Assembly (NCBI GenBank): GCA_964510105.1
Contig: CAZEAI010000008.1
Span: 6,923-70,922, forward strand
Direction: 5' to 3'
DNA length: 64,000 bases
Origin: an uncultured bacterium
GTDB taxonomy: Bacteria > Latescibacterota > MWCZ01
This document shows, piece after piece, positions 4,607 to 56,125 of the stretch. Made by a program: the position numbers and the translations under genes. Position 1 is the first letter of the stretch. Every line of letters begins with the position of its first letter. The notes under the pieces were generated by a model that had not been told where the DNA came from, did not search any database, and was given only the letters and a program-made list of their open reading frames with translations.

Positions 4607-4700
4607 GCTGTGTGTCGCTCCATGTGGTCGTGGTCGGCTTCGCCTTGCCCACCCGCGTCGCTTCCGCGCGACGGGTTGGGGGCCGGTCTCGGTACCGCCG

Positions 4701-13979: not shown

Positions 13980-14158
13980 TACACCTACCCATGCGTCTGG
14001 ACCGGGGGCTCAGCCCTCCCGTCCCGAGGACGCGCACAACACTACCCATCGTCGCCGCGGCGGGAATCGAGTGTCGCAGCGGCGACGTGAACGACTCCCT
14101 CCGGCTTTGTGTGGAGAACGCTCCCGTCGCGGTCGGGCGGACATCGAAAGGAATCCCA

Positions 14159-34892: not shown

Positions 34893-35405
34893 ATGTCCCT
34901 CCGCCGCCTGTTCCCGTTCGTCGTCCTCGCGCTCTTGACATCACGCTCCCACGGCCAGGAGGCTTTTCGCGCCGCCCCGGTGGAGGAGCAGATCTCGATT
35001 GTGCAGGACATCGCGATCGCTGAACACACTCCTTCGATCAGAAATGCCTCCGTCACCAAAGACGGCCAGTACGTCGTTTCCCTGGACAACTACAACTACT
35101 ACAGCCTGTGGAGCCTCGGCGACGGCGCCCGGCTTCGCTACGAGTTCCTCGATTACGAGGACTACGAAGCGCAGGCGATGGCGATGTACCCGAACGGGTC
35201 TCATTTCGTCACCTTCGACACCCGATTCTCGGCCGAGACCCAGCGACCGGGCTTCGGCGTGCGTCAGTATCGACCCCACGACGGCAGTCTCGTTCGCACC
35301 CATTCGGGAGATTGGGGCGAACTCGCCGTCTTCGGAACGGTGTGGCGTGCCGCGGCCATCAGCGCCGACTGGCAGTATTTCGCCGGCGCGGTCAGGTCAA
35401 CGTAG
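34893..35405 (+). CDS. N-terminal fragment of a giant WD40/Fn3 T9SS cargo protein (signal peptide plus the first WD40 blades)
   Basis: AAGGAG RBS and signal peptide MSLRRLFPFVVLALLTSRSHG. The WD40-like motifs (TKDGQYVVSL, ISADWQYFAG) continue in the next segment in another frame. Confidence 0.5.
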   Translation: MSLRRLFPFVVLALLTSRSHGQEAFRAAPVEEQISIVQDIAIAEHTPSIRNASVTKDGQYVVSLDNYNYYSLWSLGDGARLRYEFLDYEDYEAQAMAMYPNGSHFVTFDTRFSAETQRPGFGVRQYRPHDGSLVRTHSGDWGELAVFGTVWRAAAISADWQYFAGAVRST

Positions 35406-38400: not shown

Positions 38401-39985
38401 GAAGATCGAGGGGCTCGAGCCGTTGACGAGCTATCACTTGCAAGTTCGGCTGTACGATCTCGCCGGGAACGGCCCCATATCCAGCGACGACATCGTTCTG
38501 CGCACGCTACGCGATCCGGATGTCTACGCACCACAGTACATCGCGGCCCCGGCCGTCGTCTCGCGCGACTCGACCAGTGTCACGCTGACCTGGGCGACGG
38601 ACGTGCGCACGGAGGCAAGAATCGACTACGGTATGACCGAGGACTACGGCCTCGCGAAGGCCGTCTCCATTCTCGAGACGGCACACTCCGTGGTGCTGAC
38701 GAAGCTGCTCACCGACACCCGCTACTACTATCGCGTGACGGCGATCGACGAGGATGCAGCGGAGACGGCCTCGTCAGGCGGCGTCTTCCGCACAACGGAT
38801 GGACCCGATCTGAACCCGCCGGTGGTGCTGGAAAGTCCGGTGGCCATCGTCGGCACGGATGAAGTGCGGATACGCTACCGCACGGACGAGCCGGCGATGT
38901 CGCTCCTGCTGCTGTACGAGCAGGCGCAAGGCGCGCTGCTTCGCGTGATCCCGCCCGCGCTTGAGTTCACCACGGAGCACGAGGTGTACGTCGGCGGTCT
39001 GGAGCCGGGCAAGACGTACTACTACCACCTGACGCCGTTCGACATGGCGCGGAACGAGCCCATTCTCAGGCTGCGATCATTCCGCACGGCGGAGTCTCCT
39101 GACGAAACGCCACCTGTGTTCGTGGCGGGTCCGGCCGTCGCCTATTCCTCCGATGAGCGCGTGGTGATCCGGTGGCGCACCGACGAAGTCACTGCGGGTG
39201 AGCTTTGGTATCAGGCGGAGGGCGACTCGGTGGCAACGAGCGTCGTCGATCCAACGCTCGACTGGGGCCACCAGGTCACGATCACGAACCTCGAACCCGG
39301 CGCGAGTTTCGATTTCGCCGTCGTCGCGCGGGACATGAACGACAACGAGACGATCGAGCCCACCGGAAGCGTGATCAGCCTCGCCGCTGGAAAGCCCGCT
39401 AGGCTGGCCACCGGCAGGTCGAGTTCGTTCGCCACATCCGCGTCGCCGGACGAAGCGGCGCCGGTGATCCTGACCGGGCCGATGATCGTCGGCAGGAGCA
39501 GCCGGTCGCTATCGGTTGCGTGGAAGACCGACGAGGTCGGCACGAGCGTGGTGCGGTATGGCCGCGTGGCTGACGCGAGCGGGCGACTCGCCCAGGTCGT
39601 CTTCGACGGACAGACCGAAGACGGTGCGTTCGGTCGGGATCATCAGGTGACGCTCACGAACCTGACGCCTGGCGCAACATACCAGTTCGAGGTGGCGTCG
39701 GTAGACCAAGCGGGAAATGCCGAAACGACGTCCTCGCTGGCCGTAGCAAGCACAACCCCGACGGTGGACATTACCGCTCCGCGCATCACGGAGGGTCCGA
39801 ACGTCGACGTGAGCGACGACAAGGCAATCGTGCGCTGGCGCACCGATGAGATCGCCGACAGTGAGGTCAGCTACTGGGTCGGGAGTGATCCGGCAAACAC
39901 GGTGACGATCGGAGAGCGTACCAGGTCGCATGTGGTCGTGCTGACGAATCTGCAGGCGTCTACGGCCTACGAGTTCGTCGTATGA
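35381..39985 (+). CDS. central segment of the giant WD40 + fibronectin-III-like repeat protein (frame-shifted relative to 34893-35405)
   Basis: From QVNVEEIGSIPS onward there are clear WD40 repeats (FSPDGQYLAVGG, VWDLGSSTL...) and then at least 12 Fn3/PAP-N-like modules of about 100 aa each (...YYYRVTAIDEDAAE..., ...YQFEVASVDQAGNAE...). The first roughly 90 codons of the ORF-finder ORF (35108-) are Arg-rich overlap artefact. Confidence 0.55.
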   Translation, partial: RRRGQVNVEEIGSIPSAIVMRKTDGEVVFRYTGDPGVAQAVAFSPDGQYLAVGGNERDSESGFVKVWELATGDLVHTLSHARVVYAVAFAPNSDTLVFGGTDFTEEPDTVKVWDLGSSTLVHALPQEEPYTKVITISPDGETIVTGGQSMVNVFRMDDGTLVRSIPEVHSASLKSLSLGLDAEIVVSSSFDGTIKVTELGSGQILREIGIGTLRSAVINSAGRYVTSASGDGALRKWNRYTGELLQTSVERHTGPIGALSLRGGRLTSGGGGIASSLRSWYARTLRPRVEFLAESRTRFLDAVETYAVDRFYYVAATRGQGIMIWDGETGELVHTLDDGAIVEAVAVTPGGETVVSAPRGGSLKYWRLSDGELLHTEELAHNDIVGGLAMTDDGQYVISASMDGLIKIWRLFDYGLEATLTHPELSDDKGLFGVRDLAVSPDGQYLACGRHGDLSSVEIWRISDGSLVTSVTGHREPIRSIAFDATGSTIVTAGEDDVIYTWLVDPPMGIIPPSSLAIQPRSGLPVTPIIRATLHGVSACTLSVNVDPTKLVPAENFVPASVYSAQPDAAASYTVDGSTITAIISAGRPVSLVNGFLAKLLFEVAPGAEPGTDVALTWNVSGTSLGGDAPDEFVDAVYTIPVPRDTRITALSPASVAAGVPSEVVIYGANFTGATEVALVDGGDVPIATYYVINDGLIRAVLPVTLTAGSYQVRVSSPIGTSTSVETLTVTEASSDTHPPAGVTDLSVESSTTTSLLVQWTAPADTLDNLSIGTDPVAGYDLRVTSAVIDSETFTSLPRVPLSPPKAPGEIESAWVGPLESGRIYFVALVSTDDSGNRSQISNVAHGITLEDTEPPTALKQVVTAISDVQATVIVESDEPARAVMKLFEAFGGLADTIVVAIDEPAKTLRLTAEGLTPSTIYGYTVELIDERENSSVTTIRPITTLAFPDETPPSFVVPVFMGTRADNSVTLGWTASEPVTSTVLYGVTTSYSDSFEVTDASLANVVKIEGLEPLTSYHLQVRLYDLAGNGPISSDDIVLRTLRDPDVYAPQYIAAPAVVSRDSTSVTLTWATDVRTEARIDYGMTEDYGLAKAVSILETAHSVVLTKLLTDTRYYYRVTAIDEDAAETASSGGVFRTTDGPDLNPPVVLESPVAIVGTDEVRIRYRTDEPAMSLLLLYEQAQGALLRVIPPALEFTTEHEVYVGGLEPGKTYYYHLTPFDMARNEPILRLRSFRTAESPDETPPVFVAGPAVAYSSDERVVIRWRTDEVTAGELWYQAEGDSVATSVVDPTLDWGHQVTITNLEPGASFDFAVVARDMNDNETIEPTGSVISLAAGKPARLATGRSSSFATSASPDEAAPVILTGPMIVGRSSRSLSVAWKTDEVGTSVVRYGRVADASGRLAQVVFDGQTEDGAFGRDHQVTLTNLTPGATYQFEVASVDQAGNAETTSSLAVASTTPTVDITAPRITEGPNVDVSDDKAIVRWRTDEIADSEVSYWVGSDPANTVTIGERTRSHVVVLTNLQASTAYEFVV

Positions 39986-41527
39986 TCGGCGGACCTGCAG
40001 GACAACGGACCGGCCGAGGTGGCGGGCCTGTCGTTCACGACGTCCGCAAGCGCCGATGTCGATGCACCGACGATCGCCGGAATGGACGTGTCGGCGCTCG
40101 GTGACATCTCCGCGAAGATCGTCTGGACGACCAACGAACCGTCCGACAGCTTCGTGGAATTCGGAACGACGACGGCGCTCGGACTGGCGGAGGGCTCGGA
40201 GGAGACGGTGACGGACCACGAGGTGTGGCTGACGAACCTCGAGCCGAACACCGAGTACCATTTCGCGCCGACCTCTACCGACATCGCCGGCAACGACGCC
40301 TCCGAGCCGACCGACGCGTTTAGGACCCTGGCAGCGCCTGAGAGCGATCCGCCCGACGCGCCGCTCGGCGTGGACGCGGTGCCGGGAGACCAGGCGGTCC
40401 TCGTGACGTGGAACGCTGTAGCCGACGGAGACGTGGCGGGATACAATGTCTACCGTACTCCCGATGTGCTGGTGGCCACGCTCCTTCAGGACACAGTTCA
40501 CATCGAGGACGGGCTCGACAACGGAACGACGTATACCTACCAGGTGCAGGCGGTGGACGAGTTCGGTAACGAGAGCGCGCTCTCCACGGTGACCGGCGCG
40601 GCAACACCGGCCCCATCGAACGTTCCGTCGGCCCCGACCGCGTTGTACCCCACCGAAGGCTCCAGCGACGCGCTCCAGCCGTATCTGACGGCGGAACCGG
40701 CCGAACCATCCGCATCGCGGCCGGATGCGGAACTGGTGTACACGTTCGTGATCGCGCGCGACGCCGAGATGTCGGACATCGTCGCAACGAGTACACCGAC
40801 AGCGAAGCTCCCCGGCTATCGCCAGCCCTGGTGGAAGCTGGCAGTGATCGAGCTGGAGCATGACAGCACGTACTACTGGGCGGCGGCAGCCTCGGACGGC
40901 GTCTTCCGGGGGAGCCTGGGAACGCCGAACAGCTTCGTCGCGGACAGTTCCGCGGAAGCGGTACTCACCGACGTTGCGCTTGCGACCTTCGCCGCCACCC
41001 CCAACGCGCAAGGGATCACGGTGGAATGGTCCGGAGCCGAGCCCAACGACCGGTTCGTCGTGCTGCGATCCACTGAGGAGGACGGCCCGTCATCGCCGAT
41101 ATCGGGCTGGCTCACCGGGGAAACGTCGCACGAGTTCACGGACATGGCGGTTACCGGCGGCAGGGAATACTACTACCGACTGCAGCGCGTGTTCGCTTCC
41201 GGCGCAACTCACGGGTATGGACCCGTATCGGCCATCGCTTCGTTGCCGGACCGGTTCGCGCTCACCGGCGTCGCGCCGAATCCATTCAACCCGACGACGG
41301 TCATTCGGTTCGACGTCCCACGCGCCGAACCAATGCGGCTTGACATCTACAACGCCGTCGGGCAGAAGGTGCGGACACTCGTTGACGGCATCCTCACGCC
41401 GGGCGTACACGCTCGAACCTGGGACGGATGCGACGATACGCTGCGTGGACTCGGATCGGGCACCTACTTCATCAGGATGGAGGCAACACAGTACACAAAG
41501 ACGATCAAGGTCACCATGGTGAGGTAG
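39986..41527 (+). CDS. C-terminal segment of the giant repeat protein: Fn3-like modules plus a T9SS (Por) C-terminal sorting domain
   Basis: This lies in the same frame as 35381-39985, separated only by a TGA at 39983-39985. It ends with ...PNPFNPTTVIRFDVPRAEPMRLDIYNAVGQKVRTLVDG...GTYFIRMEA..., the TIGR04183-type T9SS CTD. The first ATG is at 40019. Confidence 0.55.
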   Translation, partial: SADLQDNGPAEVAGLSFTTSASADVDAPTIAGMDVSALGDISAKIVWTTNEPSDSFVEFGTTTALGLAEGSEETVTDHEVWLTNLEPNTEYHFAPTSTDIAGNDASEPTDAFRTLAAPESDPPDAPLGVDAVPGDQAVLVTWNAVADGDVAGYNVYRTPDVLVATLLQDTVHIEDGLDNGTTYTYQVQAVDEFGNESALSTVTGAATPAPSNVPSAPTALYPTEGSSDALQPYLTAEPAEPSASRPDAELVYTFVIARDAEMSDIVATSTPTAKLPGYRQPWWKLAVIELEHDSTYYWAAAASDGVFRGSLGTPNSFVADSSAEAVLTDVALATFAATPNAQGITVEWSGAEPNDRFVVLRSTEEDGPSSPISGWLTGETSHEFTDMAVTGGREYYYRLQRVFASGATHGYGPVSAIASLPDRFALTGVAPNPFNPTTVIRFDVPRAEPMRLDIYNAVGQKVRTLVDGILTPGVHARTWDGCDDTLRGLGSGTYFIRMEATQYTKTIKVTMVR

Positions 41528-42097: not shown

Positions 42098-42601
42098 ATG
42101 CGAACAAGGCTGGGGTACTGGATCTCCGCCGGGATCGTCGTCCTGCTCGCGGGATGCACCGCGAACCAGGATTCCACGATCAAGTCGAATGTCGAGCGGT
42201 ACCTGACTGAGAGCGCTCGAGCTGTTAACGCGCGAGACTGGGAGGCTTACGGAGAACTCTTCACCGAAGACCTGCTGATGTTCGCTCCGGGATTTCCCGG
42301 GACAAGGGGGCGGGACGCTCGTCTGGAGATGGTTCAGGGCATCATGGCAGCGTTCCCTGACGGTCGCGTGGATGGGCAGCGGGCGTTCGGCAAGGGCGAA
42401 TGGGCCTGCTTCCAGTTCGAATTCTCCGGCACAAACACTGGGCCGCTCGCAGCGGCTGACGGCAGCGAGATACCCGCCACCAACAAATCTGTCAAGTTCT
42501 CATACTGCATCGTTGCGCGGTACGAGGCAGGGCAGATCGCCGAACTCCATGAGTACTTCGATCAGATGGACTTGCTGACGCAGCTTGGCCTTGTGCCGTA
42601 G
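42098..42601 (+). CDS. SnoaL-like (ester-cyclase / NTF2-fold) lipoprotein
   Basis: Lipobox LLAGC, followed by the typical SnoaL block ...DWEAYGELFTEDLLMFAPGFPG.... Confidence 0.55.
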   Translation: MRTRLGYWISAGIVVLLAGCTANQDSTIKSNVERYLTESARAVNARDWEAYGELFTEDLLMFAPGFPGTRGRDARLEMVQGIMAAFPDGRVDGQRAFGKGEWACFQFEFSGTNTGPLAAADGSEIPATNKSVKFSYCIVARYEAGQIAELHEYFDQMDLLTQLGLVP

Positions 42602-42760: not shown

Positions 42761-43243
42761 ATGCGAGCGAGACAGACTTGCTGGATTGCCGTCGGGGTCG
42801 GCCTGATGTCCATGGGTTGCAGCGCGACGGGGATGGCGGACCGCGATGCTTTCGAGGCGGCAGCAAAGGAGTTGGCTCAGGACTACTCCGTGGCCGTGGA
42901 TAGTGGAGATGTGAATCTCTATGTCACCCATTTGGACGACAACGCGATATACATGGCGCCAGGCGCTCCGGAACACAGTGGGCGGGCGGCTGTCGGAAGA
43001 GCGTTGGGAGAGTGGTTCGCGGCAGTGAATTTCGAGGAATTCGCCGTCAACCTTGAAGAGTTCGAGGTGTTCGGTGATTTCGGCTACATCCGTGGCACGT
43101 ACTCCTGTCTCACGATCCCATGGGCAAGTGGGGACACAACTCGGTTTGAGGGCAAAGTCCTGAGCATCCTGAGACGGCAACCCGACGGTTCCTGGAGGAT
43201 CTACCGCGACTGCTTCAACTCGAACGGGCTTCCGGCTATCTGA
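42761..43243 (+). CDS. NTF2-like (DUF4440/SnoaL-type) lipoprotein
   Basis: Signal peptide with MSMGCS. The C-terminal ...RQPDGSWRIYRDCFNSN motif is shared with the 48597-51033 paralogues. Confidence 0.5.
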   Translation: MRARQTCWIAVGVGLMSMGCSATGMADRDAFEAAAKELAQDYSVAVDSGDVNLYVTHLDDNAIYMAPGAPEHSGRAAVGRALGEWFAAVNFEEFAVNLEEFEVFGDFGYIRGTYSCLTIPWASGDTTRFEGKVLSILRRQPDGSWRIYRDCFNSNGLPAI

Positions 43244-43452
43244 CGTTGGCGCCATACCGGCGCCGACGACGGCGAGCTGTCATGCGCACCGGGAGACGGA
43301 GACGCACCGGTCTTTACTACCAGCTATTCCTTAGTATATTACCCCCTGATGTCGATCGCTGAGCGGGATAGTTGTACACGGCCCGCCCGTTCCTAGTGCC
43401 CTCCGTAGGCGGGTGGTCCCGCGCACTGCCGGCGCCGCCCGAGGTGGTCGCA

Positions 43453-46400
43453 GTGGATACTCAACGGCGAGCAGACGACGCAACTCTGGTCGGGCGTTGC
43501 CTCGACGGTGACCGCGAGGCGTTTGCCGGGCTCGTGCAGGCCTACGAGCAGACCGCCCTCGCGACGGCGATGGCGTACGTCGGCAACTCGGACGACGCGG
43601 GAGACGTCACCCAGGACGCCTTCGTCACGGCCTTCACGTCGATCGGCGATCTACGAAACCCGGCGCAGTTCGGGAGCTGGTTCCGACGAATCGTGCAGCG
43701 GCACGCGCTTGAGCGTGTACGCGATGCCGGACGAAGCACCCCTCTCACCGACGAGCACGGCGCCACACCCCCGCCCGCGTCGCCGGATATGCCGCAGACA
43801 TCGTTCTCCGCCGACGTGTCGTCCGCCGTGCAACAGCTTCCGATGGCATACCGCGACATCGTCCTGATGTATTACCTCAACGACTTGTCCTACCGCGGCA
43901 TCGCGGAGATCATGGACCTGCCGGAGTCGACGATACGGAGCCGTCTGCGAACGGCACGGCGAAGGCTGAAAGGCGTCCTGCCCAGACAAGGCCGCAATCG
44001 CGGCGCCGACGACCACGGGCAGATCCGCTCGGCGATTCAGAAGTCGGTAGGCAAGCGCCACTATCGCGACGCTCTCGAACGCCTCCTGTCGGCCGGAATG
44101 GAGCACATACGCGATACGCTCTCGGATGAGGAACAGGAGCTGTTCGGACGGAACGTCGAGACGATCCTCTCGCACGTAACCGGCATCGAGGACGAAAGCC
44201 CGTGCAGAGCGGATTGGGGGGAGGCGCCCGACGTCGAGGGATTCGTCGGGCGCGCGGAGGAACTCGCGACGTTGCGCACGTGGATCGCGGACGAGCAGTC
44301 GCGCCTGATTGCCGTCATCGGTATGGGTGGAATCGGTAAGACAGCACTCGCGGCAAGAGCAGCCAGGATCGTCGCAGGCCAGTTCGAGTGCGTCTTCTGG
44401 CGATCGCTGGTGAACGGACCGCCGCTTTCGAATGTGCTCACTGAGTTGATCGGGCACCTTCTTGGCGAGTTCAGCGTGCCACGCTCCGATCGGATCGACG
44501 AGCAGATCCGACGCGTCATGGAGTACCTGCGGTCCCACCGCTGCCTCATCGTGTTGGATAACGTCGAGGGAATACTGGAGGCCGGCGCCGCCGGTCGCTT
44601 CCGCGAGGGATACGAAGGTTACGGGCAACTGATACGACAGTTCAGCGAGTGCCCTCACCAGAGCACGGCGCTGCTCACCAGCCGTGAGCGGCCGCGCGAT
44701 TTCGCTCTTGTGGAGCGTGTTGACGGAACCGAACTGCACGCCTTCGAGCTGAAAGGCTTGGATGGCGACGCCGCACGGGAGCTTCCGGGCCTGGAGAGCA
44801 TTGCAGCATCGGACGACGACTGGCAGACGCTGGTGGAGCATTTTTCCGGCAATCCGCTCGCTTTGAGGCTGGTGGCGGAGAAGGTGTTGGACCTGTTCGG
44901 GGGAGATCTGTCACACTTCCTCGCGGCCGGACTTCCGCTGTTCGACGACGTGCGCGACATACTCGATCGGCAGTTCGAACGCCTGACGCCGCTTGAGCGT
45001 GACGTGATGTGCTGGCTGGCGATCGTACGGGAGCCGGTAACTCCGGATGAGATCCGCGTACGACTGGTTCCGGCCGTGTCGGCGAGTGAGCTTCTCCAGA
45101 TCATGCACTCCCTCAGTCTGCGAACGCTCGTGGAGCACCGTTCGGGTACGTTCCTTCTGCAGAACGTCATCACCGAGTACGTTACCGACCGAATCGTCGA
45201 ACAGGCGGCCGGCGAAATCGCGGCGGGCCTGGTGACTCTCCTGGATACCCACCCGCTGACGATGGCAACGGCGAGACCCAACGTGAGAGACGCACAGCGG
45301 CGTCTGATACTGTCGCCCGTCGGCCTTCGCGTGGTGAACGAATTCGGCCCGAACGCCGTGGAAGAAGCGCTGAAGGCAACCGTCGATTCGCTTCGTGCCG
45401 GCGACGCGCTCCCGAACGGGTATGCCGCGGGCAACTACTTCGACCTCGTGGCTCATCTCTTCGGCGAGGTGGTCGGCTGGGATTTCTCGCACCTCTCGGT
45501 CCGTCAGGCGGACCTGACCAGTGCACACGTGCACGACACCAGCTTCGCGCACTCCGTGTTCGGCGAATGCGCGCTTCAGCACGCACATGGCAACGTGGAT
45601 TGGGCTGAATTCAGTCCCAGCGGCCGGGAGATAGCGATCTCAGCGTTCGGACGACTGGAAACGCGATCGTTCCCGGGCCTGGAGCCGCTCAGCGCCGATT
45701 GCACGGAGGGTGTACGGTCGGCGACGTACACGACAGACGGTCGCCTCCTCGCCATCCGTCTTGAGCACGCGGAGAGTTGGCCGGAAGCAGCCGATCGCTA
45801 CTCGCCTCGACGGATCGATGGTGGGACCGGTAGCAGATGGCATAACTCTGTGATGGATGTTGCATCTGGAGCGGCCCTGTTGGAATACGATGTGCAGTGG
45901 ATGAATATCGGCTGCCTATGCCCTTCCGGCAGGCTACTCGCCCACGACGACATCGACTTCACCATCAAGGTGCTCAACCTGGAGAACAAGGAGTGCGTCG
46001 CGACGCTGCCGAGCAGCGTAGGCCGCCTCTCTCAGCACGGACTGGCATTCCACCCGGACGGTGAGATGCTGGCAACCTGTGGCTACGACGGATCGGTCAG
46101 GGTGTGGGATGTTCGGTCAGCCGAATGCAAATGGACGTCCGAGCAACAAGGATGTAGCAGAATCGCATTCACCCCGGACGGCGACAAGCTTGCTATCTCC
46201 GATACCCACAGCCATCGGACTCGGTTCATGGACGCCGATTGCGGTACGTGTCGAGGCACCATGGAGGCGGCTCTGCTGTCGTTCCATCCCGACGGCAGAA
46301 CGGTGGCCGGTCACGATTCGGCCAACCGCATCGTGATCTGCGCCGTCGATACCTCCGATCTCGCGGCGACATTCCGAAGCGAAACGGGGATGGTGACGGC

Positions 46401-48279
46401 CGCCTCGTTCAGCCCGGATGGACGGTACTTGTTGGTGGCGGAGGAGCCGGGCCTGCTCCGCGTCTGGGATCTGGAGACGGGGCAAAGCCTGAATTCGTCA
46501 CAGGGAAACCGGCACGCGAACGAGCCGAGGGCCGATATCGACCCAACCGGAAGACTTGTGGCCGTAGGTGAGGAAGCGGGCCAGGTGCATGTCTGGGACG
46601 TATCGGCGTCGCGCGTCGTCACGACACTGCGTGAGCGAGAGGCCCTGCTATCTGCGCACGAGTTCACGCCCTCGGCAAGCTCTCCGTCTGAACGCGACTG
46701 GCTCAACATAGATGAAGAGTGGAGAGTCTACGATGAAGACTCGGAACTATGCATCAACACAGCGGATGGGAGTCTGCGACGACAGACGCACCGAATTGCC
46801 TCGCCTGTACGCGACGTGGTTTTCAGTCCGGACGGATCGCTTGTGTCGGGCGCGGATCCGGCGGACCGGGGATTCAGGGCATGGCACGTGAGCACGGGAG
46901 AGTGCGTTGGCTGGTACAACAGATCGCATGCCGTCCGCTATGTCTGTTTCGCGCCGAATAGCTCGCTCGTCGCCTGTCACACGACGGATGACGAGGCCGA
47001 ATATCCGACAACGATCTGGAATTGTCGTACCGGGCAGCTCGTTCGTGGGCTCCCGTGTCACTCGTGGCATATGGCTTTCACCCCGGACGGCAGAACCTTC
47101 GCGGGAGCGACCTACCGCGACGGGGAATTCGTCATGAACCTGTGGGACGTTTCCTCGGGTGAGCGACGGCTGTCCCTCGAAGCGCGGGAGTGGATAACGT
47201 ATTTCTGGCTCTACAGCGTGACCGGATTCAGCGCGGACGGGAGACTGCTGGGTACGTGTCTGGGCGGCCCGAACTACAGGGGAGCCATCGTGTGGGATAC
47301 GGCTGTAGCTGAGCCGCTGCTGAAGGTGCCCGGCAGCAAATACCTCAGCTTCCTCGAGAACGACCGAGTGTTGGTTCGCGGCGGGATGGAAGGCCAGACG
47401 GTGTCGGTCGTGGACGTCCGAACGGGTGAACAGATGGACTCGTGGAACACCAGTATCACCGGCCCGACCAGAGCATTCAGCTCCGACGGCAGGATGATTG
47501 TCACGGCATCGGAGCATCAGCCGGGTGTATCGGTCTGGAATGTCGACGATGGATCCCACGTGTGCACGATTCCCCGGATTCGTCCGTACGATGGAACGAA
47601 CATCGCGCACGCGGACGGGCTGACGCCTGCCGAAACAGCGACACTGAAACGCCTGGGCGCCATCGAGCAAGAGGTGGGGCTCTCCCCTGCCGAGCCCCAG
47701 TCGCCGCCGCGTTCGTCGCCACGGGACCCTCTCGAACGACGATTCACCGCATGGGCAGGGGGACCGAGGGCGCTCGTGTCGGTCGTCTGCGTCGAAGCGG
47801 CCGATCGAACCATCCTGTCCGACCGGCTTGAGGGTAACCAGCGCGTCGAACGCATGCGCGCCCGGCACGCACAACGGCTGCGGGATCTCACCGGTCGGCA
47901 CCACGGGCTGACAATCTGCGACGACGGCGCGAGCGCTTCCATCGCTTTCCACACACCCACGGAGGCGCTGGAGTTCACGCGAGAGTGCCGTCGAGAGACA
48001 GAAGCGGACGGGATCAGGCTGCTTACCGGCATCCATGTGGAATCGATCAGGATCGGGAGCGAGGACCCCTTCGACCACCTTGCCACACACCTTACCGGGA
48101 TAGTCGAGAAGGCGAATTCGTCCGGGGTCTGGGCGAGCGACGAATACAAGGACCTCCTTGCGAGATTCGGTCCGAACGGCCTGCCGGAGCCGGTGTGGAT
48201 CATGCACCCCAACTGCCAGCTCAAAGGGCTTCCGGGGAAGCACAAGCTATGGTCGCTGACCGACGACGCGCCGGCCTGA
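43453..48279 (+). CDS. ECF sigma-70 factor fused to an NB-ARC/STAND NTPase, WD40 repeats and a C-terminal class-III-cyclase-homology-like domain
   Basis: Sigma-70 region 2 (AFAGLVQAYEQTALATAMAYVGNSDDAGDVTQDAFVTAF) and region 4 (LPMAYRDIVLMYYLNDLSYRGIAEIMDLPESTIRSRLRTARRRLKG). Then FVGRAEELATLRTW...IAVIGMGGIGKTALA...CLIVLDNVE...GNPLALRLV, the NB-ARC P-loop/GxP motifs. Then at least 10 WD40 units (FHPDGEMLATCGYDGSVRVWDV...). Then a roughly 170-aa C-terminal domain matching the cyclase pattern (...IRLLTGIHVESIRIG...VWIMHPNCQLKGLPGKHKLWSL). This is one uninterrupted frame. The start is set at the GTG at 43453 after AGGTGG; the exact start is uncertain (43372-43453). Confidence 0.65.
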   Translation: MDTQRRADDATLVGRCLDGDREAFAGLVQAYEQTALATAMAYVGNSDDAGDVTQDAFVTAFTSIGDLRNPAQFGSWFRRIVQRHALERVRDAGRSTPLTDEHGATPPPASPDMPQTSFSADVSSAVQQLPMAYRDIVLMYYLNDLSYRGIAEIMDLPESTIRSRLRTARRRLKGVLPRQGRNRGADDHGQIRSAIQKSVGKRHYRDALERLLSAGMEHIRDTLSDEEQELFGRNVETILSHVTGIEDESPCRADWGEAPDVEGFVGRAEELATLRTWIADEQSRLIAVIGMGGIGKTALAARAARIVAGQFECVFWRSLVNGPPLSNVLTELIGHLLGEFSVPRSDRIDEQIRRVMEYLRSHRCLIVLDNVEGILEAGAAGRFREGYEGYGQLIRQFSECPHQSTALLTSRERPRDFALVERVDGTELHAFELKGLDGDAARELPGLESIAASDDDWQTLVEHFSGNPLALRLVAEKVLDLFGGDLSHFLAAGLPLFDDVRDILDRQFERLTPLERDVMCWLAIVREPVTPDEIRVRLVPAVSASELLQIMHSLSLRTLVEHRSGTFLLQNVITEYVTDRIVEQAAGEIAAGLVTLLDTHPLTMATARPNVRDAQRRLILSPVGLRVVNEFGPNAVEEALKATVDSLRAGDALPNGYAAGNYFDLVAHLFGEVVGWDFSHLSVRQADLTSAHVHDTSFAHSVFGECALQHAHGNVDWAEFSPSGREIAISAFGRLETRSFPGLEPLSADCTEGVRSATYTTDGRLLAIRLEHAESWPEAADRYSPRRIDGGTGSRWHNSVMDVASGAALLEYDVQWMNIGCLCPSGRLLAHDDIDFTIKVLNLENKECVATLPSSVGRLSQHGLAFHPDGEMLATCGYDGSVRVWDVRSAECKWTSEQQGCSRIAFTPDGDKLAISDTHSHRTRFMDADCGTCRGTMEAALLSFHPDGRTVAGHDSANRIVICAVDTSDLAATFRSETGMVTAASFSPDGRYLLVAEEPGLLRVWDLETGQSLNSSQGNRHANEPRADIDPTGRLVAVGEEAGQVHVWDVSASRVVTTLREREALLSAHEFTPSASSPSERDWLNIDEEWRVYDEDSELCINTADGSLRRQTHRIASPVRDVVFSPDGSLVSGADPADRGFRAWHVSTGECVGWYNRSHAVRYVCFAPNSSLVACHTTDDEAEYPTTIWNCRTGQLVRGLPCHSWHMAFTPDGRTFAGATYRDGEFVMNLWDVSSGERRLSLEAREWITYFWLYSVTGFSADGRLLGTCLGGPNYRGAIVWDTAVAEPLLKVPGSKYLSFLENDRVLVRGGMEGQTVSVVDVRTGEQMDSWNTSITGPTRAFSSDGRMIVTASEHQPGVSVWNVDDGSHVCTIPRIRPYDGTNIAHADGLTPAETATLKRLGAIEQEVGLSPAEPQSPPRSSPRDPLERRFTAWAGGPRALVSVVCVEAADRTILSDRLEGNQRVERMRARHAQRLRDLTGRHHGLTICDDGASASIAFHTPTEALEFTRECRRETEADGIRLLTGIHVESIRIGSEDPFDHLATHLTGIVEKANSSGVWASDEYKDLLARFGPNGLPEPVWIMHPNCQLKGLPGKHKLWSLTDDAPA

Positions 48280-48495: not shown

Positions 48496-48596
48496 GGCAG
48501 AGCAGCGGTGATTCGTATCGCCGTGAGAAGCCTCGTGTTGTACCGATTCGAACCAGATCAACTGGACACCCGGCACACACGCGGAGGAGGAGAGCA

Positions 48597-49085
48597 ATGC
48601 GCACGAAATCAGTGTGCTGGATCGCCAGCGGCATCATCGCCACCATCGTTGTTCTCGCGGGCTGCGGCGACGGCTCGGCGGACGCGTCGGGCGATGTGGA
48701 CTTCGGCGCAACTCTTGCGGAACATGCGGCGAAGTATGCCGCGGCGTGCAACGCGGGCGATGCGGACGCCTACTGCGCCTTACTCGACGAGAGTTTCACT
48801 CAGTTGCCACCAGGCGCTCCACCATTCATTGGGAAGGCAGCCGTCAGGGATGCGATAGGAGGGTTTTTCGAGGCATACGATCTCGAGGATTTCACGATCG
48901 AAACACAAACGTACGAGGTGTCCAGGGAATTTGCATGGAATTGGGGCACGTATTCCTATCGCACGGCTCCAATGGGTACGACCGATTTCGCTCCGTACGA
49001 GGGCAAGTACCTGAGCGTACTGAAGAAGCAGCCTGACGGTACCTGGTTGTTCTACATTGGCTGCTTCAACTCGAACACGCATTAG
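48597..49085 (+). CDS. NTF2-like (DUF4440/SnoaL-type) lipoprotein, paralogue 1
   Basis: GGAGGAGG RBS and lipobox VLAGCGDG. Conserved blocks ...AAACNAGDADAY...FAWNWGTYS...KKQPDGTWLFYIGCFNSN. Confidence 0.6.
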   Translation: MRTKSVCWIASGIIATIVVLAGCGDGSADASGDVDFGATLAEHAAKYAAACNAGDADAYCALLDESFTQLPPGAPPFIGKAAVRDAIGGFFEAYDLEDFTIETQTYEVSREFAWNWGTYSYRTAPMGTTDFAPYEGKYLSVLKKQPDGTWLFYIGCFNSNTH

Positions 49086-49248: not shown

Positions 49249-49746
49249 ATGCGATCACGACTGACGCGTTGGATTATCAGCCGTATTGCGGGCAGCAGCG
49301 ACGACGCGACCACAGTCCCGACGACGGCGGAGACCGAGGGCTTCGAGACGGGCCCCGAGGAATTTGTGCGGGCCTTTGTGGCAGCGTGTAAGGCTGGGGA
49401 TCTGGATACCTACATGGCCCTTGTCGACAAGGACTTCGTCAGGATGCCCCCGGATGCTCCACCGATCGTCGGAGAAGCGGCGATCAGGGAGTGGGCCAAA
49501 GGTTTCTTCGAGACATTGGAACTTGAGGAATTCACGGTCGATAATCGCGAATCCCACGTGTTCGGCGATTTTGCCTGGTTCTGGGGCACGCACTACATTC
49601 GCTCGGCTGTCAAGGGACAGGAACCCTCGGTATGCGAGCATATCGACGGCAAGCACCTCACTGTTCTGAAGAAACAGGCTGATGGCTCCTGGGCGGTGAT
49701 CGCCGACTGCTTCAATGGAAACGCACCTCCTACTGTGCCAAACTGA
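49249..49746 (+). CDS. NTF2-like protein, paralogue 2 (lipobox Cys replaced: IAGSSDD)
   Basis: Same fold blocks as paralogue 1. The start is at MRSRLTRWIISRIAGSSDD, preceded by the GGGGAGGAAGAG motif shared by all paralogues. Confidence 0.55.
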   Translation: MRSRLTRWIISRIAGSSDDATTVPTTAETEGFETGPEEFVRAFVAACKAGDLDTYMALVDKDFVRMPPDAPPIVGEAAIREWAKGFFETLELEEFTVDNRESHVFGDFAWFWGTHYIRSAVKGQEPSVCEHIDGKHLTVLKKQADGSWAVIADCFNGNAPPTVPN

Positions 49747-49885
49747 CGCGGTGGGGGGGCATCCGAACGCGCCGGGCGGGCTGCCGTGCGGGTAGCTCCG
49801 GCCGCTCTCAACGTCGCACGGCGGTCAAGCGATCCACAGAGGCCTGCGCACCGTTCAGCAGCGTCTCGAAGAGGAGGAAGAGTAA

Positions 49886-50391
49886 TGCGAACGCAACTAG
49901 CCCGTTGGGTCACCAGCGGCATCATCGTCGTTCTCGCGGGCTGCGGCGACGACAGGGACAGCGGCCCAACGGCGGCCGAGATCGAAGCCTTCGAGGCGGC
50001 TGAGGTGACGCTTCCGCAAGCGTATGCCGCGGCGTGTAACGCGGGGGATGCGGACGCGTACGTCGCTCTTATCGATGACGACTACGTTCAACTGCCCCCT
50101 GATGCTCCACCGGTCATTGGGAAACCGGCCATGCTCGAGCGAATCAGACTGATGTTCGGGGCGTATGATTTCGAAGAATTCACCGTCGATAACCGCAAGG
50201 CGGAGATGTTTGGCGACTGGGGTTGGGTCTGGGGTACGCACTCCTATCTCCTGGCACCCCAGGGCACGACCGAATTCACAAAGTACGACGGCAAGCACCT
50301 GAGCATTCTGAAGCGGCAAGCCGACGGTTCCTGGCTGTTCTACGGCGACGCCTTCAACTACAACGCTCCCGCGATGAAACTGGCGCCCTGA
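49886..50391 (+). CDS. NTF2-like lipoprotein, paralogue 3
   Basis: MRTQLARWVTSGIIVVLAGCGDD lipobox. Conserved ...AAACNAGDADAY...KRQADGSWLFYGDAFNYN. Confidence 0.6.
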
Positions 50392-50523: not shown

Positions 50524-51033
50524 ATGCGATCCCGACTGACGCGTTGGATTACCAGCCGTGTTGCGGGCAGCAGCGACGACACCACCGCCGTCCCGACAGC
50601 GGCGGATGTCGAGACTTTCGAGGCATTCCTTGCGAGGCTTGCGGTGGGTGCGGATGGGTATGCCGCGGCGTGTAACGCCGGGGATATCGACGCCTTCTGC
50701 GCCCTACTCGATGAGGACTTCACTCAGATGCCGCCAGACCAGCCACCATGCGTTGGGAAAGCGGCCGTTAGGGAGCGAATGGCAGGACTGTTCGCGGCAG
50801 TTGATCTCGAGGACTTCACGATCAACCACCAGGATTGGGCCATGTTTGGCGATTTTGCCTTCCTGTGGGGCACGTACTCCTGTCGCACGGCGCTGCAGGG
50901 GCAGACACCCCCGGTATGGAGTTCGTTCGACGGCAAGTACCTGAGTGTCGTGAAGAAGCAGACTGATGGTTCCTGGCTGGCGTACCTCGACTGCTTCAAC
51001 TCCAACGTTCCTGGAGCGGAATTGGCGCTGTGA
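50524..51033 (+). CDS. NTF2-like protein, paralogue 4 (lipobox Cys replaced: VAGSSDD)
   Basis: MRSRLTRWITSRVAGSSDD... and conserved NTF2-like blocks, with the same upstream motif. Confidence 0.55.
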   Translation: MRSRLTRWITSRVAGSSDDTTAVPTAADVETFEAFLARLAVGADGYAAACNAGDIDAFCALLDEDFTQMPPDQPPCVGKAAVRERMAGLFAAVDLEDFTINHQDWAMFGDFAFLWGTYSCRTALQGQTPPVWSSFDGKYLSVVKKQTDGSWLAYLDCFNSNVPGAELAL

Positions 51034-51437: not shown

Positions 51438-52052
51438 ATGGCCTGCGATCGCGAATCGGGCGATCACGGATCGGGCGAAAACGACCTCAGCGTCGAGCCC
51501 GTGTCGAGCGGAATCGCGCTAGTCTCACTAGTAGCGACACTCCCCGCCGACCCGTCGGTCCTCGTCGCCCGGCTCGAAGGGAACGAGCGAATCGAGCGGG
51601 CACGCCGGGCGGTGGCGTCCAGGGCGAGCGACGTGATCGGGAATCACAGTGGATGGCAGGTCGCCGGTAACGGCGAATCGATCACGGCTGCCTTCGGAGC
51701 GCCATCGGAAGCGCTTGACTTCGCGCTTGAGCTGCAGTTCGACACCGGTTCGCGGCTCATCAGGCTGCGTGTGGCGGCGCACGTTGACGTCGTGGCAGAT
51801 CGGGGATCCGGCGTCGCCTGCGGCGACGTGGGACCGTACGACGACATGCTCGCCTTCACGCGGCAGTTGCTGCGGAGGAACGGCGGCACGGAGGTGTGGA
51901 CGAGCAACGATTTCAAGACTCAGATCGACCACCACGGCACAACGCGTCAACGAGAACTCGACTGGATGATGCGACCAAACTGCGTGCTCGACGGGTACGA
52001 GGGACGGCACATCCTCTGGTCGGTGAATAGCCGCGAGGCGGCGATTCCTTAG
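51438..52052 (+). CDS. stand-alone class-III nucleotidyl-cyclase-homology-like domain protein (degenerate)
   Basis: GGGAGG RBS. 205 aa. ...IALVSLVATLPADPSVLVARLEGNERIERARR...IRLRVAAHVDVVADRGSGVACGDV...DWMMRPNCVLDGYEGRHILWSV parallels the cyclase blocks (VTVLFADIVGFT / RIGIHTGxVV / xELKGK). It is paralogous to the C-terminal domain of the ECF-STAND protein. Confidence 0.45.
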   Translation: MACDRESGDHGSGENDLSVEPVSSGIALVSLVATLPADPSVLVARLEGNERIERARRAVASRASDVIGNHSGWQVAGNGESITAAFGAPSEALDFALELQFDTGSRLIRLRVAAHVDVVADRGSGVACGDVGPYDDMLAFTRQLLRRNGGTEVWTSNDFKTQIDHHGTTRQRELDWMMRPNCVLDGYEGRHILWSVNSREAAIP

Positions 52053-52167
52053 GCAGTTCGCTCTGCGAACTGCAAAACGAATGCGAGCGCCACGAGCGTT
52101 CGCCGCGCGGGCAGCCCCGCTCCACCCGTTCCTCCTCGGGGCTGCCTGCCATGGAAAGGAGTTCATC
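52053..52167 (+). promoter_or_regulatory. conserved intergenic element, copy 1: terminator-like hairpin, conserved spacer, then leader hairpin, upstream of a T9SS cargo gene
   Basis: GCAGTTCGC-tct-GCGAACTGC hairpin immediately after the stop codon. A conserved ACGAAxGCGAGCGCCACGxGCGTTCGCC spacer follows. A second hairpin GGCAGCCCCG-n17-CGGGGCTGCC sits 20 nt before the RBS. Confidence 0.5.
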
Positions 52168-53517
52168 ATGAACATGCGCCGCACCATCCTTCTGTGTCTG
52201 GGGATGCTGCTCTGCGCGGGAGTCCGAATCGCACACTCAGCCCCCGCCATCGCACCCGACTGGATACAAAGCGGCCATTCGAGCTATGTGTTATGTGTGG
52301 CGATAGACTCGGTTGGGAATACCATCGTTACGGGGAGCGCCGACCGCACGATTAAGGTGTGGGACCTGTCCGGCGGCAGGTTGCTGCGGACGCTCCCCGT
52401 TCCCGACAGTGGCGACGAGGGTCACACGGCCGGCGTACAAAGCGTGGCGATCAGCCCTGACGGGAGCACGATCGTCTCGGGAGACTGGGACCACACTACG
52501 AAGGTGTGGAACCTGTCCGACGGCAGGCTGCTACGCACGCTCATCGGCGGCAGAGGCGATGCGTGGAGCGTAGCTTTCGCCCCGGATGGTAACACGGTTG
52601 TCTCGGGCGGCTTCGATGCCACGATCAAGGTGTGGCGGCTGTCCGACGGCACCGTGCTGCGCATACTCAGAGGCCACACGAGCTACGTGACCAGCGTGGC
52701 AGTCAACGGGAATACTGTCGTCTCGGGGAGTGCCGATCGTACGGTCAGAGTGTGGGATCTGTCCGACGGCACGCTGTTGCGGACCCTCACTGCTTCAAGC
52801 TGCGCGGGCGCCGGTCATACCGCTTGCGTGGCCAGTGTGGCGATCAGCCCCGATGGGGACAGGATCGTCTCGGGGAGCGCCGACGGCACGATCAAGGTAT
52901 GGAATCCGTCCGACGGCACGCTGCTGCGAACACTCCCAGTCCCGGGCGGCGGCGACGCGGCACACACGGGTGGTGTCCGAAGCGTGGCGATCAGCCCCGA
53001 CGGGAACAGGATCGCGTCGGGAGGTCTCGACGCCACGATCAAGCTGTGGAGTCTAACCGAAGGCTCGCTGGAGAAGACCCTCGCCGCCCATGGGAACACG
53101 GTGTGGAGCGTGGCGATTAGCTCCGATGGCGGATCCATCGTGTCAGGTGGAGGAGACGCACGGGTGATCCGATGGGGTGTGTATCCGCCGCTCAAGACGC
53201 TGACACCGCCTAGTGCGGTAGAAGGGAATCCACGGCAAGCTCGTGCGACCTTGTCACAGAACGTCCCGAACCCGTTTAACCCATCGACGTCCATCCCGTA
53301 CTCGCTTGCGTCGGACGGCGTTGTGCGGCTCGAGTTGTACGACGCGATCGGCCGGCCGGTGCGGACGTTGCTGGCCGACTACCGCCACGCGGGAGAGCAC
53401 TCCGTCGTGTGGGACGGTCGCGACGACGCGGGTCGCGCGGTAGCGAGTGGCGTCTACGTTGTACGGATGGTGGCAAGCGGCTTCGTCACAGCGCGGAAGG
53501 TGACACTGCTGCGATAG
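52168..53517 (+). CDS. secreted WD40-repeat protein with a T9SS (Por) C-terminal sorting domain
   Basis: Signal peptide MNMRRTILLCLGMLLCAGVRIAHS. About 8 WD40 units (TIKVWDLSDGTLLRTL...). C-terminal NVPNPFNPSTSIPYSLASDGVVRLELYDAIGRPVRTL... T9SS CTD. Confidence 0.7.
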   Translation: MNMRRTILLCLGMLLCAGVRIAHSAPAIAPDWIQSGHSSYVLCVAIDSVGNTIVTGSADRTIKVWDLSGGRLLRTLPVPDSGDEGHTAGVQSVAISPDGSTIVSGDWDHTTKVWNLSDGRLLRTLIGGRGDAWSVAFAPDGNTVVSGGFDATIKVWRLSDGTVLRILRGHTSYVTSVAVNGNTVVSGSADRTVRVWDLSDGTLLRTLTASSCAGAGHTACVASVAISPDGDRIVSGSADGTIKVWNPSDGTLLRTLPVPGGGDAAHTGGVRSVAISPDGNRIASGGLDATIKLWSLTEGSLEKTLAAHGNTVWSVAISSDGGSIVSGGGDARVIRWGVYPPLKTLTPPSAVEGNPRQARATLSQNVPNPFNPSTSIPYSLASDGVVRLELYDAIGRPVRTLLADYRHAGEHSVVWDGRDDAGRAVASGVYVVRMVASGFVTARKVTLLR

Positions 53518-53645
53518 CGAGAGGATTGCCGCAGTTCGCCTAGCGAGCTGCAAGACGAAAGCGAGCGCCACGCGCGTTCGCCGCGCGGGCAGCCCCGTTC
53601 CACCCGTTCCTCTTCGGGGCTGCCTGCCATACAGAGGAAAGAGTC
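53518..53645 (+). promoter_or_regulatory. conserved intergenic element, copy 2
   Basis: About 90% identical to copy 1. Hairpin 1 carries a U-G wobble change (GCGAGCTGC). Hairpin 2 is identical. Confidence 0.5.
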
Positions 53646-56045: not shown

Positions 56046-56125
56046 TCGAGGCGAACCGGAGTTGCGTAGCAACTCCCAGACGAACGTGAGCATCGCGAGC
56101 GTTCGCGGGGCTGCCGGCAACACTT
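56046..56125 (+). repeat. conserved intergenic element, copy 3 (partial)
   Basis: GGAGTTGC-gta-GCAACTCC hairpin with two compensatory base-pair swaps relative to copy 1, followed by the CGCGAGCGTTCGC conserved spacer. No cargo gene follows. Confidence 0.4.

Follow-up and report, generated by a model that had tools for sequence, protein, structure and literature searches.

An extracytoplasmic function sigma factor joined in one gene to an NB-ARC/WD40 STAND body and a degenerate cyclase domain in an uncultured Latescibacterota bacterium

Cells usually control sigma factors through a separate anti-sigma protein, a small fused domain, phosphorylation or regulation of transcription, and the usual outputs of STAND/NLR proteins are death, nuclease, protease or simple DNA-binding effectors. 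In the STAND transcription regulators, such as MalT, the AfsR/SARP-type proteins and GutR, inducer binding and ATP gate activity. Here we describe a gene in which a sigma factor and a STAND body form a single polypeptide. It lies on the forward strand of a 64,000-nucleotide stretch from an uncultured bacterium of the Latescibacterota (MWCZ01; assembly GCA_964510105.1, contig CAZEAI010000008.1, positions 6,923 to 70,922); this whole stretch is called the window below. The gene encodes an extracytoplasmic function (ECF) sigma factor, a linker, an NB-ARC domain, a WD40 region and a C-terminal domain related to class III nucleotidyl cyclases.

The closest described systems each share part of this layout. 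The principle of autoinhibition in STAND proteins has been documented (PMC6468293). A survey of 361 cyanobacterial genomes found NB-ARC, NACHT and WD40 domains as accessories to proteins that have sigma region r4_2 only, with cataloged families including K.3 'r4_2*NB-ARC' and 'r4_2*NACHT*WD40', and none of its 59 patterns joins r2 and r4 with a nucleoside triphosphatase (NTPase) (PMC11119718). Kaur et al. described an 'ECF-like HTH' (helix-turn-helix) N-terminal effector in TRADD-N proteins, which can also contain STAND modules (PMC8195603). The reclassification of ECF sigma factors includes 19 groups with C-terminal extensions, among them SnoaL-like, TPR, Cys-rich, DUF1835 and transmembrane types, and ATPase, NB-ARC and WD40 are unmentioned in its main text (PMC7826278); according to a review, ECF57 extensions carry WD40-like repeats (PMC8999054). 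Sigma-STAND fusions are unmentioned in PMC7671368. The original prediction for this locus, made by a model from the sequence alone, had called the system previously undescribed. This stands insofar as no description or characterization of a complete ECF sigma factor (σ2 and σ4) fused to a STAND NTPase was found in the literature, an absence that is not proven, and it gives way insofar as the body is typical of a large STAND family and related fusions have been cataloged.

The fusion reading frame runs from 43372 to 48279 on the forward strand without a stop codon, where a TTG start gives 1635 residues. The best start appears to be the GTG at 43453, giving a product of 1608 residues, because GAGGTG lies 6 nucleotides (nt) upstream, the JGI gene call P0279 begins at the same codon and the N termini of the orthologues align there. 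The third-position GC content of the gene (GC3, 0.75) is typical for coding regions of the window. None of its segments has the hydrophobicity needed to cross a membrane, which places the protein in the cytoplasm. The architecture comprises five parts in one gene: the ECF sigma factor, a helical linker, the NB-ARC domain, 14 WD40 blades and a pseudo-cyclase. The uninterrupted joining of sigma, NB-ARC, WD40 and cyclase-like parts that had been predicted is thus borne out by the stop-free frame, by Pfam and NCBIfam matches and by conserved orthologues.

The N-terminal module contains both regions of an ECF sigma factor. In Pfam, Sigma70_r2 matches residues 27 to 94 (E = 1.6e-10; 41 bits against a cut-off of 24), Sigma70_r4_2 matches residues 122 to 172 (E = 1.3e-13; 50.8 bits against 25.7) and Sigma70_r4 matches with E = 6.6e-10 (38.8 bits against 24.1); the NCBIfam sigma70-ECF model TIGR02937 gives 81.1 bits against a cut-off of 42.9. 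The gap between σ2 and σ4 is 27 residues (r2 ends at residue 94 and r4 starts at residue 122), an ECF layout lacking σ3 and σ1 regions, and residues 7 to 174 align end to end with the solved ECF sigma factors SigW, RpoE, SigE and SigH. The DxxQxxF and FxxW motifs of σ2 are invariant in an alignment of five family members. Judged by its σ2, σ4, short linker and curated-model score, the module has the sequence hallmarks of the ECF (group 4) sigma-70 family. A search of representative proteins identified ECF sigma factors with other long extensions as the nearest relatives of the sigma core. The closest of these (P0125-P0270) form dozens of clusters of cytoplasmic ECF proteins of ~600 to 680 residues with an unannotated extension of ~440 residues, and other close relatives are ECF proteins of 1,100 to 1,400 residues in which a hydrophobic segment precedes CarboxypepD_reg repeats. 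Large fusions seem to arise readily in this sigma clade.

A linker of ~70 residues follows, which is conserved in all five family members and is missing from the N termini of the cyanobacterial relatives and from other ECF sigma factors. The idea that the ECF proteins of ~620 residues share the linker was rejected, except for a short segment after σ4.

The remainder of the protein, up to the C-terminal domain, is a STAND body. The NB-ARC model PF00931 matches residues 280 to 371 with 38 to 41 bits against a cut-off of 23.5, so that the predicted Sigma70_r2, r4 and NB-ARC assignments all hold above the Pfam gathering scores, and the GMGGIGKT, LIVLDNVE and GNPLAL motifs named with them are all present. 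Compared with the Walker B pattern hhhhD[DE], LIVLDNVE keeps the first Asp and has Asn at the second acidic position, with a Glu two residues on; this Asn is common to close homologues (LLVLDNAE, LLILDNVE). The nearest solved structures to the nucleotide-binding domain are plant CNL NB-ARC domains and the archaeal STAND protein PH0952. WD40 and beta-propeller Pfam models match residues ~815 to 1370, and a motif search combined with direct reading gave 14 blade markers of the 'FSPDG' type between residues 720 and 1342, rather than the roughly 10 blades first estimated, which corresponds to two seven-bladed propellers. The protein has the layout of a STAND, with the sigma module in the effector position and the WD40 region as the C-terminal repeat sensor.

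A search with residues 1 to 700 returned >1,200 protein matches, the best 120 of which are 37 to 45% identical from DWGEAPD onward. The matched STAND relatives come mainly from Cyanobacteria and Chloroflexota, are named NB-ARC, NACHT or WD40 proteins, and many of them carry an N-terminal XRE, LuxR/CsgD or BTAD module. The body is colinear with and 40 to 45% identical to >1,000 STAND proteins that have the same start (DWGEAPDV...GMGGIGKT) and the same end (RPYEGMNITG...LKALGA); in the window protein it ends with LGAIEQE at residues 1401 to 1407. When the N-terminal modules of 104 relatives were compared with the window sigma module and linker, no similarity was detected (best E = 0.24). Dissimilar N termini on a homologous body point to an effector swap at a fixed junction. 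At the same best E value, the r4-like HTH of the cyanobacterial relatives was rejected as a homologue of the window σ4 plus linker. By homology, the window protein belongs to a known STAND family; a complete ECF sigma factor plus linker fills its effector slot, and a pseudo-cyclase is added after the normal C terminus.

The fusion frame was found, exactly or at 90% identity or more (at least 90%), in three independent assemblies, namely a 78.6-kb NCBI contig, an identical JGI contig and an ENA contig (P0280); one assembly with the window gene cluster comes from a marine sample of an oxygen-deficient water column. The strain variant P0280 (contig L084) differs from the window protein by 82 amino acid substitutions and no insertions or deletions (indels). 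Ratios of nonsynonymous to synonymous substitution rates (dN/dS), calculated by the Nei-Gojobori method between the window and L084 for each segment (Table 1), show that every segment of the gene is under purifying selection. In the WD40 segment (45883-47652), dS between the window and L084 reaches 0.186, twice the value of about 0.09 found elsewhere in the gene, with dN/dS unchanged at 0.2; the repeats may have recombined or undergone gene conversion. Two full-length orthologues, 53 to 57% identical to the window protein, have the same five parts: P0121, on contig L001 of a metagenome-assembled genome (MAG) in GTDB, is 53% identical over 1,629 residues, and P0122, on a 125-kb JGI contig, is 52 to 59% identical per segment. 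The stop or frameshift between sigma and STAND that the original prediction had named as the sign of two merged genes is absent from the window gene in the three assemblies and from the two orthologues.

Table 1. Coordinates of the fusion gene, its parts and neighboring features in the window, with dN/dS by segment (residues are counted from the GTG start)
Feature	Residues	Position	Strand	dN/dS	Remarks
Whole fusion gene	1-1608	43453..48279	+	0.21	1608 aa from GTG, stop codon included; alternative TTG at 43372 gives 1635 aa
Sigma segment				0.15	
ECF sigma region 2 (σ2)	27-94	43531..43734	+		Pfam Sigma70_r2
ECF sigma region 4 (σ4 HTH)	122-173	43816..43971	+		Pfam Sigma70_r4_2, Sigma70_r4
Family-specific linker	181-253	43993..44211	+	0.06	Lowest dN/dS of all segments; helical by sequence appearance; motif K-R-x-Y-R-[DE]-A-L-E conserved
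NB-ARC/STAND nucleotide-binding oligomerization domain (NOD)	254-640	44212..45372	+	0.16	Starts at DWGEAPD; profile, alignment, motifs
Walker A GMGGIGKT	290-297	44320-44343	+		Fits GxxxxGK[ST]
Walker B LIVLDNVE	365-372	44545-44568	+		Direct reading
GNPLAL (GxP motif)	466-471	44848-44865	+		Direct reading
Spacer plus 14 WD40 blades (predicted two propellers)	641-1407	45373..47673	+		Ends RPYDGTNI...LGAIEQE
Spacer segment				0.13	
WD40 segment				0.20	
Degenerate class III cyclase-homology domain (pseudo-cyclase)	1425-1608	47725..48276	+	0.40	Profile, AlphaFold, fold search
Sigma-70-type promoter-like site TTTACT-16-TATATT		43313..43340	+		~110 nt 5' of the start codon; consensus match only
S1, SnoaL-like lipoprotein		42098..42601	+		Lipobox LAGC
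S2, DUF4440/SnoaL_2-like lipoprotein		42761..43243	+		SMGC
Conserved noncoding block, core TTCGTATCGCCGTGAGAAGCCTCGTGTTGT		48512..48541	+		85 nt upstream of S3; candidate promoter or operator
S3, DUF4440-like lipoprotein		48597..49085	+		Position kept in orthologous loci
S4, DUF4440-like paralogue		49249..49746	+		Without hydrophobic signal peptide
S5, DUF4440-like lipoprotein		49885..50391	+		Lipoprotein signal
S6, DUF4440-like paralogue		50524..51033	+		Without hydrophobic signal peptide
Stand-alone pseudo-cyclase paralogue		51438..52052	+		204 aa; identical to P0283

This is a very rare family. Rarity was assessed by an exhaustive phmmer search of 1.84 billion representative proteins with residues 1 to 300, a query chosen so that junction-spanning proteins outrank stand-alone sigma factors, and the only junction-spanning matches were P0121, P0122, P0123 and P0124, which with the window gives five lineages (three full-length, two frameshifted). 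P0123 and P0124 are distant relatives that were first called as short proteins; P0124 lies on a contig of 1.85 Mb and has not been truncated by a contig end. Mapped onto their DNA, the window protein revealed colinear homologues on the long-read contigs L092 and L093, with sigma modules 36 to 39% identical to that of the window. The L092 homologue (10001-14054) contains two frame switches, with pieces corresponding to window residues 7 to 270, 267 to 411 and 412 to 1404, and the L093 homologue (1457-4797) contains four within 3.3 kb. On both contigs the frame encoding sigma and linker stops just past DWGEAPD. We read the switches as probable long-read indel errors, or possibly pseudogenes, rather than as a real two-gene arrangement, because the pieces are colinear, the switches fall at consecutive residues and a neighboring sulfatase gene on L092 is also split. 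The L092 homologue ends at the usual WD40 end of the family and has no pseudo-cyclase.

A metagenome scan with the family alignment of sigma, linker and P-loop gave 271 sigma relatives, none of which crosses the junction; of these, 69 are complete, 49 of them stand-alone and all of them lacking a P-loop. Contigs L063, L073 and L015 were rejected as family candidates, being other ECF types or fragments. One unrelated protein among the top 150 matches, the NCBI entry P0184 (1416 aa), combines Sigma70_r2 and r4_2 with AAA_16, TPR_MalT and DUF1349 and has marginal similarity to the window NOD (E = 5.7e-4), which means that a sigma-STAND fusion arose at least twice.

The C-terminal domain proved difficult to place as a single sequence, which gave no Pfam match (PF00211/Guanylate_cyc included), no homologues in a word-indexed search and a marginal match in the PDB (E about 1e-3). 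A profile built from five copies (the window, the strain variant P0280, the orthologues P0121 and P0122 and the stand-alone paralogue in the window) matched the class III cyclases Ma1120 over the full domain (E = 5e-10) and Rv1900c (E = 1.8e-5) and also retrieved stand-alone relatives, three of which carry PF00211. An AlphaFold model of the domain from an eight-sequence alignment that included PF00211-positive homologues had a predicted local distance difference test score (pLDDT) of 83.8 and a predicted template modeling score (pTM) of 0.82; an earlier two-sequence alignment gave a pLDDT of 49 and was unusable. All of the top 50 hits in a PDB fold search with this model were class III cyclases, with template modeling (TM) scores of 0.74 to 0.85 to Ma1120 (E about 1e-11). 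The catalytic residues are replaced in the three fusion orthologues: the second metal-binding Asp is A, G or M, the substrate-specifying Lys is C, R or Y, the transition-state Asn is T, A or A and the Arg is G, E or G, and the first metal-binding position is E in the window and D in the two orthologues. They are also replaced in the small stand-alone paralogues and are intact in the PF00211-positive proteins P0287-P0289 and in Ma1120. The degenerate group has conserved motifs of its own, RLEGNxR and W.M.PNC.L.G..G.H.LWS, which are common to the small stand-alone paralogues. The C-terminal domain is, on these comparisons, a pseudo-cyclase with the predicted fold and ancestry of class III cyclases; the cyclase-like assignment first made for it holds for fold and ancestry, and the replaced catalytic residues and missing Pfam match stand against the rest. 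The stand-alone cyclase-like paralogue that had been noticed nearby was recovered at 35% identity to the fused domain (E = 4e-33).

The fusion gene is flanked by six SnoaL/DUF4440 genes, two upstream and four downstream. The true starts of S2 and of S4 to S6 are internal ATG codons with strong GGAGG sites. All six had been predicted to be NTF2-like lipoproteins; the family assignment stands, and lipoprotein signals (LAGC or SMGC) are present in four of the six (S1, S2, S3 and S5). The N termini of S4 and S6 read MRSRLTRWI(I/T)SR(I/V)AGSSDD, compared with ...VVLAGC in the others, and the hydrophobic core and lipobox are gone. S4 and S6 may be cytoplasmic versions of an exported family and so might serve the cytoplasmic sensor as ligands or partners. 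The original prediction had also linked these proteins to the fused SnoaL regulators of ECF41, a link that is not supported: since the proteins are encoded by separate genes and are mostly exported lipoproteins, they are more likely to be regulon targets than cytoplasmic regulators. Genes for the stand-alone pseudo-cyclase, for a secreted WD40 protein and for large proteins that end in FlgD_ig sorting tails come after S3 to S6.

The neighborhood is conserved as expected. In all three cyclase-bearing loci (the window, L001 and the P0122 locus), the gene immediately 3' of the fusion gene is DUF4440/SnoaL-like, and the stand-alone pseudo-cyclase co-occurs in two genomes. On L001 the downstream DUF4440 gene runs off the contig end and its product is 53% identical to S5; the MAG holding L001 has a stand-alone pseudo-cyclase (P0285) beside two DUF4440 genes on a different contig. 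The genes upstream of the fusion gene on L001 encode major facilitator superfamily (MFS), TPR and metallophosphatase proteins and are unrelated to those upstream in the window.

A noncoding block with a 30-nt core upstream of S3 is nearly identical to one upstream of the L001 DUF4440 gene (core TTCGTATCGCC.TGA..AGCCTCGTGTTGT), whereas the encoded proteins are only ~53% identical. It occurs in four distinct versions (the window, L084, L001 and L086), always 85 to 86 nt before the DUF4440 start codon, and it is unique in the window, where no match is expected by chance. CTCGTGT, an invariant part of the block, looks like the CGT-type -10 element that many ECF promoters have. We hypothesize that the block is a promoter or operator. 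Two other explanations for the block were rejected: an RNA hairpin or known RNA family, with no Rfam match and the one stem checked by eye not maintained in L001 and L086, and a short upstream open reading frame (ORF), which in L084 is interrupted by a stop codon. The window as a whole had no match to Rfam families and contains no rRNA or tRNA genes. Two sigma-70-like consensus sites were found compared with 3.0 expected by chance, and the one upstream of the fusion gene (Table 1) is not conserved in L001.

Several further observations concern the genes around this cluster. A hairpin element, GCAGTTCGC-NNN-GCGAACTGC-AA.ACGAA.G.GAGCGCC, occurs at 52053-52081 and 53531-53559, with a weaker copy near 56046-56100; the copies lie directly 3' of the stop codons of consecutive genes (the stand-alone pseudo-cyclase, the secreted WD40 protein and a 799-aa FlgD_ig protein), with none expected by chance, and may act as a terminator or belong to a REP-like class. 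The gene at 52168-53517, just 3' of the stand-alone pseudo-cyclase, encodes a seven-bladed WD40 protein with an N-terminal signal peptide. By eye it ends in a FlgD_ig or type IX secretion system (T9SS)-like sorting segment; FlgD_ig and Por_Secre_tail are not among its 25 listed Pfam matches. The protein appears to be exported, which would place WD40 domains both inside the cell (as sensor) and outside it in this cluster. Farther upstream, the frames at 35108-39985 (1625 aa, WD40 and fn3) and 40019-41527 (502 aa, fn3 and FlgD_ig) correspond to a single 2213-aa gene at 1626-8267 of L084; the split across 35108-41527 may be a stop or frameshift in the window or a real strain difference.

We propose, at about even chances, that the protein is a one-component, nucleoside triphosphate (NTP)-gated ECF sigma factor that senses the cytoplasm and drives the adjacent lipoprotein genes. 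The mechanism is modeled on MalT, Apaf-1 and PH0952-type STANDs and on ECF sigma factors with regulatory extensions. In the resting state, the ADP-bound NOD/WD40 body and the helical linker would keep σ2 and σ4 from core RNA polymerase. Binding of a cytoplasmic ligand to the two WD40 propellers would lead to nucleotide exchange and then to opening or oligomerization, and the freed sigma module would engage core RNA polymerase and transcribe the adjacent DUF4440/SnoaL-like lipoprotein array; the neighboring genes for secreted FlgD_ig-tailed proteins are further possible targets. The candidate promoter for the sigma module includes the block at 48512-48541, and sigma-dependent initiation would fall a few bases 3' of CTCGTGTTGT. 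Domains with the class III cyclase fold operate as head-to-tail dimers. The pseudo-cyclase, presumably unable to make cyclic nucleoside monophosphates, is most likely a dimerization or nucleotide-binding regulatory module, and it possibly pairs with the stand-alone paralogue. The earlier suggestion of a STAND acting in cis as an anti-sigma domain, with NTP- and ligand-gated recruitment of RNA polymerase, is plausible on this analysis.

Several points weigh against this proposal. That the protein binds RNA polymerase and depends on NTP is inferred, as are its ligand and its regulon. Sigma factors work on RNA polymerase as monomers, so the induced-proximity logic of STANDs does not carry over in a simple way. 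The conserved block sits 5' of just one gene in the window, and the typical ECF 'AAC' -35 element is not recognizable in it. No ECF-type autoregulatory promoter is evident 5' of the fusion gene; since this region is not conserved between the window and L001, none is proposed. The L092 homologue lacks both the pseudo-cyclase and DUF4440 neighbors, which suggests that fusion, DUF4440 genes and pseudo-cyclase travel together as a feature of one subgroup, and the proposed regulon may hold for that subgroup only.

A wider interpretation is more tentative. The protein could be an NLR-like receptor with sigma output in which ligand capture by the WD40 propellers, together with ATP-dependent opening or oligomerization of the NB-ARC module, frees an ECF sigma factor that is inhibited in cis. 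The STAND body would then serve as a nucleotide-gated anti-sigma, the fused and stand-alone pseudo-cyclases would form a partner-switching pair that tunes the switch and the independent ECF-AAA_16-TPR fusion would signal a recurrent, so far unrecognized class of sigma regulation.

It is unlikely that the sigma-like module does not act as a sigma factor and only binds DNA, as in a STAND activator or repressor of the MalT/AfsR type, working alongside the housekeeping holoenzyme. Oligomerizing STANDs such as MalT do act through cooperative DNA binding. The corresponding slot in homologous STANDs holds plain HTH modules (XRE, LuxR, r4_2-only and BTAD), which favors this explanation (PMC11119718). 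The window module, however, has a complete σ2 with motifs of regions 2.1 to 2.4, scores above the ECF cut-off and is under purifying selection (dN/dS of 0.15). To our knowledge σ2 has no role beyond core binding and -10 recognition.

We regard as similarly improbable an NLR-like conflict or anti-phage sensor, in which the WD40 region would recognize an invader protein and the sigma module would launch a defense or dormancy program. The common reading of bacterial NB-ARC/NACHT proteins with WD40 or TPR repeats is that they are conflict systems. An ECF-like HTH effector has been described in that setting (PMC8195603), and both dS and dN peak in the WD40 segment. However, the dN/dS of 0.2 in that segment indicates no diversifying selection, and the conserved partners are lipoprotein and secreted-protein genes, with no recognizable defense genes at any locus examined. 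No PADLOC family matches the fusion protein (anti-phage STANDs such as Avs and bNACHT included), the stand-alone pseudo-cyclase or S3 at E <= 1e-3.

Less probable again is release of the sigma module by regulated proteolysis in the linker, which would make the fusion a pro-sigma factor tethered to a sensor. The linker is the most strongly conserved segment, and processing of pro-sigma factors is known, for example, from the N-terminal extension of BldN, cited in PMC7826278. Neither a protease gene conserved in the neighborhood nor a cleavage-site mark in the sequence was found.

That the C-terminal domain is an active nucleotidyl cyclase, adding a second-messenger output to transcription, is very doubtful: the class III fold, the profile homology and the acidic residue (E/D/D) that all three fusion orthologues keep as their first metal ligand position are offset by replacement of the second metal Asp, Lys, Asn and Arg and by the lack of a Pfam Guanylate_cyc match. 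An assembly chimera, missed frameshift or decaying pseudogene, with sigma and STAND as truly separate genes, can practically be set aside, since the several ORFs on L092 and L093, the sigma-linker ORF ending after DWGEAPD among them, look like indel errors and the frame is continuous in the NCBI, JGI and ENA assemblies and two orthologues, with a dN/dS of about 0.2 and no indels.

If the one-component sigma proposal is true, nucleotide- and ligand-gated access of a sigma factor to RNA polymerase would be a new logic for both the sigma and the STAND fields, and the protein would be the largest known 'one-component' ECF sigma factor. In this compact system a single gene comes with a candidate target promoter beside it and a possible partner protein, so the proposal can be tested directly. 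Its rarity, with five lineages known, limits its general biological weight.

Among known systems, the HTH-NB-ARC-WD40 STANDs of Cyanobacteria and Chloroflexota, for example those of Calothrix and Nostoc, share the whole body (DWGEAPD, NB-ARC, spacer, 14 blades and RPYEGMNI...LKALGA) and have a nucleic-acid-related module at the same junction; unlike the window protein, they carry a single HTH (XRE, LuxR/r4_2-only or BTAD) and have no σ2, helical linker or pseudo-cyclase. MalT, the AfsR/SARP-type proteins and GutR similarly use one polypeptide with a P-loop STAND and a C-terminal repeat sensor to control transcription output. Their outputs are LuxR or OmpR/BTAD-type DNA-binding domains that recruit or assist a holoenzyme, whereas the output of the window protein is a sigma subunit, and the HTH of MalT is C terminal, whereas the window effector is N terminal and the sensor is WD40. 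The fold of the window pseudo-cyclase is that of the class III cyclases Ma1120 and Rv1900c, from which it differs by lacking the catalytic residues and having motifs of its own.

The ECF41, ECF56, ECF294 and ECF295 (SnoaL-like), ECF42 (TPR) and ECF57 (WD40-like) groups resemble the window protein in their σ2-σ4 core, no obvious anti-sigma and an in-cis extension presumed to be regulatory (PMC7826278; PMC8999054). Those extensions are small or repeat-only, and none of the 19 groups summarized there is described with an NTPase switch, whereas the window extension spans ~1,430 residues and contains an NB-ARC domain. In ECF41, ECF56, ECF294 and ECF295 the SnoaL-like domain is fused to the sigma factor, whereas in the window the SnoaL/DUF4440 proteins are encoded by six separate genes, four with lipoprotein signals. 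The database entry P0184 also has a complete ECF sigma factor (r2 and r4_2) N terminal to a STAND NTPase with a repeat sensor; unlike the window protein, it belongs to the AAA_16/MalT-like clade, with Walker A GEAGIGKS, TPR rather than WD40 repeats and no pseudo-cyclase. The window protein is best filed as a STAND transcription regulator with a whole-sigma effector or, equally, as an ECF sigma factor with an unprecedentedly large NTPase-containing extension.

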